This document shows, piece after piece, positions 52,414 through 54,819 of a stretch of 64,000 nucleotides of DNA. The position numbers and the translations under genes are program-made. The notes beneath the pieces were generated by a model. The model did no database searches. It was not told where the DNA came from and saw nothing but the letters and a program-made list of their open reading frames with translations. The first letter of the stretch is position 1, and each line of letters begins with the position of its first letter. Origin of the DNA: Alphaproteobacteria bacterium (GTDB lineage: Bacteria; Pseudomonadota; Alphaproteobacteria; Micavibrionales; UBA2020); assembly GCA_027483355.1 (NCBI GenBank), contig JAIXUW010000292.1, forward strand, positions 4,628 through 68,627, written 5' to 3'.

Positions 52414-53313
52414 AAACTCAGAGGCCAAGGTGCGGTTCACCTTGCCGTTTTTGACGAAGTGCAATTCCAGACGGATCCCGTTCTGAAAGCCGCTATGCCC
52501 TGGGGTGGCCAGACCATGATCACAGTTTGGTTTTTATCCAGTGTATCTTCAGATCCAAACGCTCCTGCGGCTCAGTACATGAACAGGCGTTGGGAGGACC
52601 GGCCCAACGAGTACGTGTTTCGCCGCTTGGTTTACGATAATGGCGGTCAGATCGTACAAAGTGACACGGGCACTGCATATGGAATTGTGGAAAGTTACAA
52701 ACGCCAAATTCAACTGGCTCTGCGCTACGGTCAGACTAAATTCGGTGGCAACATTGTGGACGGAACTATTGATACTCTGTGGTACAAGAGACCGGCGGAT
52801 CACGACAAGAAACTGATTGACGAATTACGCTTTGCAAAGGAGTACAAGCGGACTGAGGAGTACATGGCAATTGCCAACTTGCCGCCTCACCAAGACGAAG
52901 CTTCGTTCAAGTTTATCAAAAACGCCATGGGAAAAGAGGAATTCGATGCCGAAATCATGAGTAAGACAAGCAACGGAGACGCGGAAGCCGGCATTTCCCA
53001 CGCGCTCAATGTGGAGTCCGTAGGCATTCTGAAAGAACGAATGCGCGCCCGAGCCAACGACCCTGGCTTTGCAAGAGTGCTACAGCAGTTTAATTACACA
53101 TACTCGGGCCTAGGAACGCTCTGGAAAGACACCAGAGTGCACGTTCTTGTTCTACATGACCCCGCCAATGGAGGCAAGGATTCAGACCCTATTTTGATGA
53201 CACTGTGCCCCGTGATGGCGGCCACTGATCTTCAAAAGCAAGAAATTCAACGCAAGCGCGCGATTCAGACCGCGCGATCTCTTTGCCACCCTCTAGATGG
53301 CATTAATGTGTTG
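52414..53313 (+). CDS. Terminase large subunit (TerL), internal exon carrying ATPase Walker B, motif III and the first nuclease Asp
   Basis: AVHLAVFDEVQFQTDPVLKAAMPWGGQTMITVWFLSSVSS matches the herpes/phage TerL pattern hhhhDExxF...hhhhSS. HVLVLHDPANGGKDSDPILMTL matches the first nuclease strand (VDPAxxxxxSxxG). No Walker A is present. A candidate 3' splice site (pyrimidine tract then CAG at 52411-52413) and an in-frame GT donor at 53314 bound the exon. Confidence 0.7.
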
Positions 53314-53979
53314 GTACGCACTTCCTTCAATTCCATCATCTCTATTCGCGTATACGTGGTGCATGAGAAACGATTCGAGCTGCACTGCACGCAAAAGAGC
53401 GCTCGCGTCCTCCCATTGCCAGGAACTGCACATATACGTCATGCATGCATTAGTGATTCTATTCGACGAGAACATTTGAAAAGACGCGACAGGAGGACGC
53501 GACATGGTCATGTCGTGAAGTCGAGAAAATCCCAGCAGCAGAGCACCGCGCAAAACGGGACGCATCCATGCTATACAGAAAGACAGCCCCATTATATCGT
53601 CGGCGTAGGGAACGAGGAGCGAATCGTCGACGGGGACACTAAAAAGGTCTTCTAGTTTTTGCTCCATGGTTCCACCGGATAAAAGCTCGGTTATACGAGA
53701 CGGGCAAGCGCAATCTGTTTGTGGTATATTTTGGACAGCAACCAAAACGGAAAAATCGACACCGGATTCCTTGCTTTGCTCGGGAGCGGGCAGTTTCACA
53801 GCAAGTGCTGCCGCTTGAAGCACATATCGTCCGAAATTACGCGCAAACGCGACATAGTGAGATGCGAATTCTTTCTCCGGAATACAGTTGCGAAGCTGAG
53901 GCACCAGGACGAAAATGGCGTGAAACAGATCAATGAGAGCCGAGTGTTCTGGTTCCTTTTCCGTTTTTTGATTTGGCAT
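53293..53979 (-). CDS. Hypothetical protein (228 aa) nested antisense inside the terminase intron
   Basis: The ATG is at 53979 and the translation looks like protein. The plus-strand frame over the same interval reads R/H-rich nonsense (VRTSFNSIISIRVYVVHEKRFELHCTQKSARVLPLPGTAHIRH...). Confidence 0.55.
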   Translation of the reverse strand: MPNQKTEKEPEHSALIDLFHAIFVLVPQLRNCIPEKEFASHYVAFARNFGRYVLQAAALAVKLPAPEQSKESGVDFSVLVAVQNIPQTDCACPSRITELLSGGTMEQKLEDLFSVPVDDSLLVPYADDIMGLSFCIAWMRPVLRGALLLGFSRLHDMTMSRPPVASFQMFSSNRITNACMTYMCSSWQWEDASALLRAVQLESFLMHHVYANRDDGIEGSAYQHINAI

Positions 53980-54048
53980 TCTTTCTTTCTTCTCTCCTTT
54001 TTGTGCCTGACTAACTATTGTTTTGTGTGCGTGTGTGCATGTGCGTAG

Positions 54049-54819
54049 TTGACGAGTGGCGCCCGTTTACCCCCCACGGCTGGTACAAACGATCAATTCG
54101 CCGCTCAACTTATCTTGCGACATCTTGTGGATTTCCTCCACACATATCAAGAATGGGCTCATCAAGGTGTCATGTTCCATTTGGTATTCGAGAGCAACAT
54201 GTCACAGTCTAAAGTCGGGGCTATCTGCAAATTCATGCACGATGCGGCTAGAGCAGCTCACGGGTCGTACAAGGGACAAATGGGACTTGACTACACTGCG
54301 GCGACAGGGCACGACAATGACGAAGTCTTCAGGCAGCTTCCATCCAACTTTTTCGACATGATTCGCGTTTATCACGATTTTGATAAAGTAGTCAAAGCGA
54401 TGAATGTTGAGCAGACTGTGTTCTCTGGCGCTCAGACGGCACAGGAACTTCCTAGTGCTATTTTCCGATCTTACGGCGCGTCAGATTACGACCTATGCGG
54501 CATGTATACGACACATGAAACCAAGAATGAGGGTTTCACAACATTGGACATGGCTTTGATCAAGGGCAACGTGGCTATACACCCGAAATTCATCACTCTC
54601 AGTTCGGTCGAAACGGCAGACGAGTTTTTGGAATTTTTCGCCAAGCAAATGTGCGATTGCATGAAGGTTATTTCAAAAAAGTCGACTTCTGTCGGCGCAC
54701 ATGGATTCAAGTACGGCAAAGCGGTGAAAAAGGGCTGCAAAGACGACGCTGTCACACTTCTGGCACTCGCGTTCTCTGTTATAAGACGCATGAAAATGAC
54801 TCTGTTAATGGCGCATTAA
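54049..54819 (+). CDS. Terminase large subunit (TerL), 3' exon carrying the remainder of the RNase-H-like nuclease domain
   Basis: FHLVFESNMSQSKVGAI matches the herpes signature (V/I)(A/V)xEGNSSQDSAVAI around the catalytic Glu. KYGKAVKKGCKDDAVTLLALAF matches the C-terminal sGK...DD..hA motif. The exon has no ATG at its 5' end. It is preceded by CTAAC, a pyrimidine/GT-rich tract and TAG at 54046-54048. Confidence 0.7.
   Translation: MTSGARLPPTAGTNDQFAAQLILRHLVDFLHTYQEWAHQGVMFHLVFESNMSQSKVGAICKFMHDAARAAHGSYKGQMGLDYTAATGHDNDEVFRQLPSNFFDMIRVYHDFDKVVKAMNVEQTVFSGAQTAQELPSAIFRSYGASDYDLCGMYTTHETKNEGFTTLDMALIKGNVAIHPKFITLSSVETADEFLEFFAKQMCDCMKVISKKSTSVGAHGFKYGKAVKKGCKDDAVTLLALAFSVIRRMKMTLLMAH

Follow-up and report, generated by a model that had tools for sequence, protein, structure and literature searches.

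In several groups of large DNA viruses the gene for the large subunit of the terminase (TerL) is interrupted by introns or split into separately encoded parts. Here we describe such a gene in a stretch of 64,000 nucleotides (nt) from contig JAIXUW010000292.1 (assembly GCA_027483355.1, positions 4,628 to 68,627 of the forward strand), which is deposited as an alphaproteobacterium and which we call the window. Two open reading frames (ORFs), at 52408-53313 and 54049-54819 on the plus strand, are very probably consecutive TerL exons, joined by a spliceosome, of a large DNA virus that resembles mirusviruses and infects marine protists. The putative intron between them hosts an antisense gene. Judged by described architecture, the mirusvirus terminase, with its MING-1 intron and its split ATPase, is the closest match in the literature. 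The arrangement was already published for mirusviruses in 2025. The window is a further case of it and opens no new question.

The mirusvirus system has been described by Medvedeva et al. (Nat Microbiol 2025, PMC12768974). Spliceosomal GT-AG introns are abundant in these viruses and are concentrated in morphogenesis genes; one terminase has up to 20 of them. The branch motifs reported are WCTAAC, CYSAC and CTGAC. Trans-splicing joins the N-terminal ATPase part of the terminase to a C-part ‘encompassing the Walker B motif and the nuclease domain’, as metatranscriptomes confirm, and terminases split in this way are found mainly in lineages without replication genes. The MING-1 genes found, 271 in all, come from three divergent lineages and occur only in an intron whose site within the nuclease region of the terminase is the same throughout. 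MING-1 is conserved and of unknown function, and it has neither nuclease motifs nor homologues elsewhere. The same work reports GIY-YIG homing endonucleases nested in mirusvirus spliceosomal introns, which are named ‘shintrons’. In the thraustochytrid Soporavirales the terminase is unsplit.

Herpesviruses are the second group of interest. TerL of the Herpesviridae has a single intron, about 3.5 kb long, between its ATPase exon and its nuclease exon (PMC13595911). The splice sites of ortho- and alloherpesviruses align near the Walker B motif (PMC12768974, Extended Data Fig. 8 legend), and alloherpesvirus sites match some of the mirusvirus ones near Walker B in position (PMC12768974).

Layout of the locus

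The features of the proposed gene, in coordinates of the window, are as follows.

52330..52413, plus strand: putative 3′ splice-site region preceding the Walker B exon, with a tract rich in pyrimidines (ctttattcttttccttttcccattttt) and with CAG at 52411-52413 as the acceptor
52414..53313, plus strand: putative internal TerL exon (exon 2), 300 codons, from Walker B to the catalytic Asp of the nuclease
53314..54048, plus strand: putative spliceosomal-type intron, 735 nt, GTACGC donor and TAG acceptor
53293..53979, minus strand: nested antisense gene for a 228-amino-acid (aa) protein, predicted to be all-alpha, a MING-1-like candidate
54049..54819, plus strand: putative terminal TerL exon (exon 3), 256 codons and a stop, holding the remainder of the RNase H-like nuclease domain

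Both ORFs lie in one shared plus-strand frame, in which the first remains open to 53655. The donor GT is at 53314-53315 in the context TTG/GTACGC, with the 5′ splice site GTACGC at 53314-53319, and the acceptor AG at 54047-54048 falls inside an in-frame TAG (54046-54048). A candidate branch point, ACTAAC at 54010-54015 (CTAAC at 54011-54015), is located 38 nt upstream of the intron's 3′ end. Exon 2 carries the Walker B motif HLAVFDEV, the motif WFLSS, the remaining ATPase and lid region and the two initial strands of the nuclease, including the codon of the catalytic Asp at 53158-53160 (LHD/P). Exon 3 holds FESNMSQSKVGAI, the catalytic Glu (FESN) and the Asp pair of the KDD motif. A preliminary description of this locus had given coordinates for the two ORFs, the GT, the AG, the CTAAC, the Asp codon and the minus-strand ORF, all of which are correct on recheck.

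Inside the intron the sense frame contains three stops, the first at codon 114. The frame is therefore open for 114 codons beyond exon 2, and a read-through ORF of 415 aa exists. It is this ORF that is found in public protein collections (P0001, window 52408-53655, exon 2 plus 114 intron codons), along with a 206-aa fragment of exon 3 that starts at an internal Met (P0004, window 54199-54819). The spliced terminase, in contrast, is not present in these collections. Prokaryote-style gene calling has mis-annotated the terminase gene, which shows how a hallmark gene can be replaced in the databases by a read-through ORF and a fragment of the real protein.

Identity of the protein

A predicted fold and a set of motifs together confirm the two ORFs as parts of a terminase large subunit. 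Residues 227-556 of the joined protein, which make up its nuclease domain, were modelled with AlphaFold2 from a trimmed domain alignment of 19 rows (A5). This alignment replaced a global MAFFT alignment of whole fragments (A4), in which the exon-3 fragments were misplaced. The model has a mean predicted local distance difference test (pLDDT) score of 77.5 and a predicted template modelling (pTM) score of 0.82. When it was compared with the PDB using Foldseek, the top 16 matches were all nuclease domains or complexes of human cytomegalovirus (HCMV) pUL89 and herpes simplex virus 1 (HSV-1) pUL15, with a probability of 1.0, and the next was T4 gp17. Target-normalised template modelling (TM) scores against the isolated pUL89 and pUL15 nuclease-domain entries are 0.57-0.69. 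The likeness to HSV-1 UL15 and HCMV UL89 is thus one of fold, which places the window protein in the same family with the nuclease domain as the best match; the difference is in sequence, as identity to pUL15 and pUL89 in the structural alignments is merely 8-12%.

The residues expected of the enzyme are retained. D249 and P250 are invariant in the alignment of the exon-2 family (A2), and so are E48, K224, D232 and D233 of exon 3 in alignment A3. The model covers the nuclease domain, and the ATPase part is recognised at the level of motifs: a Walker B of the form hhhhDE and a coupling motif WF[LVI]S[ST], both of which are kept in the homologues.

This family is tiny in databases. A word-indexed search returned three matches, and an exhaustive phmmer search of 1.84 billion representatives returned 21. 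Related loci were also sought in IMG/VR and JGI metagenomes with the family profile A1, which gave pattern matches and no confirmed relative, and Pfam scans of ten homologues gave chance-level matches only. The terminase family is too divergent for HMMER-level detection.

Two probable exons of one gene

Do the two ORFs encode a single protein? The proposed junction, INVL/LTSGAR, falls inside a predicted beta-strand (model residues 71-80) that has a pLDDT of about 91, and the complete RNase H fold is encoded by neither ORF alone. An intron-less relative, the 641-aa protein P0016 from locus L009, is contiguous at this point (SPFI/LTGADILP), and in a BLASTP comparison the alignment of the joined window protein with P0016 crosses the junction ungapped. 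Distant homologues agree on the same boundary. Similarity is lost exactly at 53313 in ten out of ten homologues of the exon-2 type, which continue with ‘-VR’ (GTN CGN), and homologues of the exon-3 type start at ILGxxxLP.

Five further intron-bearing loci were obtained from other samples: L001 (a Tara scaffold), L003, L007 (JGI), L010 (Logan) and L012 (ENA). TerL identity across these five is 24-60%, and lineages this far apart share the insertion site at codon level. The donor /GTACG[TC] is at the identical codon boundary in all six loci, the window included. A YAG/ acceptor could be located in five (the window, L001, L003, L007 and L010), and the contig of L012 stops inside the intron. The introns are 735 nt long in the window, 741 in L001 and in L003, 1072 in L007 and 1212 in L010. 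Candidate branch points of the form CTRAY are found 22-69 nt upstream of the located acceptors in L001, L003, L007 and L010, although short branch motifs such as these are weak evidence on their own.

Both exons are under purifying selection. The ratio of non-synonymous to synonymous differences per site (pN/pS) is 0.14-0.38 overall, with synonymous divergence saturated. In comparisons with L001 and L003 exon 2 is 58-60% identical with a pN/pS of 0.33-0.34, and exon 3 is 56-57% identical with a pN/pS of 0.37-0.38.

Among the alternatives to splicing, the one that survives best is still a very unlikely one. The terminase could be split at the protein level, the two ORFs and the N-terminal part being translated separately and assembling non-covalently. 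This would fit with the separate proteins that ORF callers output (415 aa for P0001 and 206 aa for P0004) and with the ATG at 52408 and the TTG at 54049 in the window, and the evidence gathered here is from DNA. However, neither exon has a conserved start codon among the relatives: L001 and L003 are without a start before KLRGQG, and L003 and L007 are without one before the exon-3 homology. Moreover, separate translation would break the protein in the middle of a strand of its predicted RNase H fold, it does not account for a GT..AG pair with an extended donor exactly at the limits of homology (the donor in six loci, the acceptor in five), and the intron-less L009 is collinear with the joined protein. 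Joined transcripts are also documented in related genomes (PMC12768974).

The preliminary description had proposed that one terminase gene is split by a 735-nt GT-AG intron, and the fold, the collinear intron-less homologue and the conserved splice sites bear this out. It had also stressed that the intron is exactly 735 nt and preserves the frame. The length is right, while its significance is not upheld: the homologous intron of L007 is 1072 nt, and the multiple-of-three length is therefore incidental. Lastly, it had named a nuclease domain complete in one exon and an assembly error as fatal to its model. No complete nuclease domain is present in either ORF, and an assembly error is countered by identical contigs from Logan, which are described below.

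The proposed junction upstream of Walker B

Exon 2 appears to be entered from a further upstream part of the gene. Protein homology begins at the Lys codon at 52414, directly after the CAG that follows the pyrimidine tract. A CAG/AAA acceptor nine codons before Walker B is common to the window, L001, L003 and L007, and in L009, L010 and L012 a YAG/ acceptor is placed some 9-11 codons ahead of Walker B. The acceptor at 52413/52414 is not preceded by a conserved start codon, and the ATG at 52408 is not conserved. These observations, drawn from the nucleotide sequences, support 52414-53313 as a predicted internal exon that would be entered via a splice acceptor. In the preliminary description the first ORF ran from 52408; the Walker B motif and the catalytic Asp that it assigned to this ORF stand, and the start does not, the ORF being read here as an internal exon.

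The intron-less locus L009 (1932-3857, Logan SRR22746113) offers an observation of its own. It is without the intron in the nuclease domain and keeps the acceptor before Walker B (ccacag/GGTCTGCGTGG). The presence of one junction and not the other suggests that the two have had separate histories of gain or loss.

The nested antisense gene

The ORF on the minus strand of the intron is a real gene. The protein of the window has orthologues in L001 and L003 at 45-50% identity, and these two orthologues share 72% identity. In the antisense frame pN is 0.18-0.37 (0.36-0.37 for the window against L001 and L003) versus a pS of about 0.8, which indicates purifying selection and agrees with the earlier proposal that a genuine antisense gene lies within the intron. 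Nested ORFs are present in all five of the other intron-bearing loci. Those of L007 (352 aa) and L012 have in common the core FCxAWxxPxLRGxxLL..PPxxSF, with blastp E-values of 1e-10 to 1e-12, and that of L010 (371 aa) matches this core weakly.

The AlphaFold model of the 228-aa protein is an all-alpha bundle (pLDDT 66.8, pTM 0.71). A search with this fold gave nothing significant in BFVD (best E-value 0.27) or in the PDB (0.33). The sequence has zero matches in Pfam and PHROGs and no nuclease or maturase signature. A homologue search with the single sequence returned none, and one with a profile of three sequences returned only the two known orthologues.

The position of the gene relative to the splice donor is a consistent feature. 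In the window it shares its final 21 nt, which include the stop, with exon 2, and in six of six loci it runs past the 5′ splice site at its 3′ end and reaches 15-132 nt into exon 2. The 5′ splice site GTACGC, read as its reverse complement, gives the A-Y codons (GCG TAC) of the nested gene, and across the loci the reverse complement of GTACGY supplies the conserved [T/A]-Tyr codons of the nested gene. Since the nested ORF extends past the intron in every locus, the intron does not form a self-contained cassette, which speaks against its recent mobility. This constant antisense overlap with the 5′ splice site is a detail that the window and its relatives add to the published picture, and it argues for long-term co-inheritance over intron mobility.

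Less probable even than separate translation is a self-splicing (group I or II) or mobile intron carrying its own ORF, as found in phage genes. A conserved ORF does lie inside the intron, the interrupted gene is a hallmark morphogenesis gene of the kind in which homing introns often occur, and a GIY-YIG ORF is located elsewhere in the window. However, an Rfam cmscan at E ≤ 1 identified no group I, group II or other family, a sub-threshold match to a small Cajal body-specific RNA (scaRNA) being a chance one. The boundaries are GT..AG and are accompanied by a yeast-like ACTAAC branch motif. The ORF itself is antisense to its host gene, is without a nuclease or maturase signature, is unmatched in Pfam, PHROGs, PDB and BFVD, and runs on into exon 2 in every locus.

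There is a tentative, and on balance improbable, further idea for the role of this gene: that it is a fixed antisense partner of the terminase and not a passenger of a once-mobile intron. The splice donor and exon 3 could then be crossed by antisense transcription, which might gate splicing and hence the timing of the late terminase. Alternatively, the target of the all-alpha protein might be the pre-mRNA of the terminase or the packaging machinery.

A 761-aa gene lies next to the terminase on the minus strand, at 54913-57198. It is convergent with exon 3, from which it is separated by a gap of 93 nt, and co-directional with the nested gene. A minus-strand read-through transcript from it would lie antisense to exon 3 and the intron. 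The N-terminal part of the protein, about 300 aa, is conserved with L001, and its centre is a low-complexity region rich in Pro, Ala and Gln.

Proposed expression of the gene

We propose that the plus-strand pre-mRNA is processed by the nuclear spliceosome of the host. The intron at 53314-54048 would be removed using GUACGC as the 5′ site, the ACUAAC about 38 nt upstream as the branch point and UAG as the 3′ site. Splicing would join DGINVL to LTSGARLPP and so complete a beta-strand of the RNase H-like nuclease; the predicted nucleotide junction, 53313/54049, reads AATGTGTTG/TTGACGAGT. The exon that begins at 52414 would be entered via the CAG at 52411-52413, and the part with Walker A would be joined to it by long-range cis-splicing or by trans-splicing. 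The 228-aa nested gene is presumably expressed as an unspliced mRNA of its own, with a 3′ end that reads across the 5′ splice site.

Independent contigs bear on the integrity of this region. Three Logan contigs, L004-L006 (SRR16126875, SRR16126878 and SRR16126879), are 100% identical to the window and collinear with it (53696-57072). Each of them begins inside the intron and continues through exon 3 into the next gene. As they are identical across the boundary between the intron and exon 3, a local mis-assembly is excluded. The least credible of the explanations we considered is an artefact or decay, that is, a frameshift, a mis-assembly or a pseudogenised terminase in an endogenous element, with an antisense ORF that arose by chance: the 292-kb source contig could indeed be an integrated element and the sense frame is open for 114 codons into the intron, yet the same architecture recurs in six loci from different samples, the independent assemblies are identical, purifying selection acts on the two exons and on the antisense gene, with synonymous divergence saturated, and the catalytic D/E/DD residues are intact and invariant.

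A number of points weigh against the interpretation that we favour, of two spliceosomally joined TerL exons in a mirusvirus-like virus. Firstly, searches of Pfam, PHROGs and PDB sequences with each ORF and with the joined protein gave zero families at permissive thresholds, and the family profiles A1-A3, which include profiles of 11-14 homologues, gave zero matches in the same three collections; the assignment to the terminase rests on motifs and a predicted fold. Secondly, we infer splicing from comparative and structural evidence. The three Logan assemblies, the only other ones of this sequence, are unspliced. Thirdly, the window shows no enrichment of the hexamer GTACGY, with 44 copies found versus 39 expected, and the evidence is therefore its positional conservation and not the motif. 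Fourthly, the term ‘mirusvirus-like’ is drawn from the Tara Oceans relatives, the gene content and the match to a published architecture, and is not a phylogenetic placement. Mirusvirus bins have been recovered from the sample behind the Tara scaffold L001, which is the closest relative.

Finally, the gene model is incomplete. Six-frame regular-expression scans of the 64-kb window found no credible ORF with a Walker A motif. A synteny search with tBLASTn against L001 found no conserved upstream exon, and Pfam scans of about 40 further ORFs of the window did not find a Walker A exon. The exon starting at Walker B lacks a P-loop and none was found; the N-terminal ATPase part is therefore probably encoded elsewhere and joined at 52413/52414.

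One candidate for this part was considered and rejected, a plus-strand ORF near 61647 in which VCFLGQRDTGKTLLAILAG could be read as Walker A. It overlaps a conserved 491-aa gene on the minus strand, and in the synteny search no plus-strand ORF of L001 matched its position.

Comparison with mirusviruses and herpesviruses

The likeness to mirusviruses, drawn by way of their published description, extends over several features. In both there is a GT-AG intron at one fixed site in the nuclease region across divergent lineages, and this intron bears a conserved gene that lacks nuclease motifs and has no homologues elsewhere. The C-part of the terminase starts just before Walker B, with the N-terminal ATPase part apparently encoded elsewhere. 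The ACTAAC-type branch motif is among those reported, and the relatives of the window come from Tara Oceans and other aquatic metagenomes. From its properties and its location, the nested protein is a candidate MING-1, a likeness that is made by description.

There are also differences. The terminase part in the window has one intron versus up to 20 in the mirusvirus example. The virus of the window keeps a DNA polymerase of family B (PolB), whereas the published split terminases are mainly in lineages without replication genes. In the searched text of PMC12768974 neither an antisense orientation or coupling of the nested gene, nor its crossing of the 5′ splice site and overlap with the donor, was found described. 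Unlike the terminase of the Soporavirales, that of the window is split, which rules these viruses out as its source. Taken as an example of the mirusvirus type of split terminase, the locus is clean and simple: it has a single intron with a single nested gene, and a relative that lacks the intron serves for comparison. The GUACGY donor and the ACUAAC branch motif may also inform on the spliceosome of the host, and they would imply nuclear expression of a late gene.

The gene also resembles HSV-1 UL15 in being a spliced gene, as proposed here, with opposite-strand coding in its intron (UL16 and UL17 in HSV-1), and it resembles orthoherpesvirus terminases in that a split of the gene adjoins Walker B. 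The position of the intron is different. In HSV-1 UL15 the last codon of exon 1 is 343, a short way before Walker B, and the 735-nt intron is within the nuclease domain, 285 codons after the Asp-Glu of Walker B. As the herpesvirid intron lies near Walker B, its counterpart in the window is the upstream junction at 52413/52414 and not the 735-nt intron. The nested protein is a further difference, as it is unmatched in BFVD, which includes herpesvirus entries. The analogy with UL15 drawn in the preliminary description consequently holds for a spliced TerL gene with opposite-strand genes, and fails for the position of the intron and for the nested protein.

Alloherpesviruses (ictalurid herpesvirus 1, IcHV-1, with ORF62/69/71, and the frog herpesviruses) share with the window a multi-exon TerL gene, of three exons in their case, with other genes between its exons. 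They differ in having vertebrate hosts and in their intervening genes, which are unrelated.

Other features of the window

Two genes have a bearing on the gene content of the virus. A family B DNA polymerase is encoded at 32049-34505 on the minus strand (Pfam E-value 2.8e-11), with archaeal and alpha-type PolB as its matches in the PDB, and a YqaJ-like exonuclease of the PD-(D/E)XK type is encoded at 43642-45357 on the plus strand. Since both are present, the genome keeps some replication genes. A possible second GTACGT donor was noted upstream of the PolB ORF (34904, minus strand), where no exon structure was seen.

The plus-strand ORF at 29548-30174 encodes 208 aa, with a GIY-YIG nuclease domain (E-value 1.5e-5) and CCHC zinc knuckles (E-value 1.1e-7). 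A brief look at its flanks revealed no obvious host exons. At 39297-40188, inside the plus-strand ORF 38987-40243, the sequence has a strict 72-nt periodicity (..AGKSPSRCN.. in a minus-strand frame). This corresponds to about 13 tandem repeats of 72 nt, or 24 codons, for which Pfam gave weak repeat-like matches only.

Two pairs of paralogues lie on the plus strand between the YqaJ-like gene and the terminase exon. The first pair contains DUF285 domains (45462-46454 and 47087-48232) and the second has C-terminal RING fingers (49298-50563 and 50924-52249). These genes are extra in comparison with the syntenic Tara scaffold L001, which has two unrelated minus-strand genes before its terminase exon.

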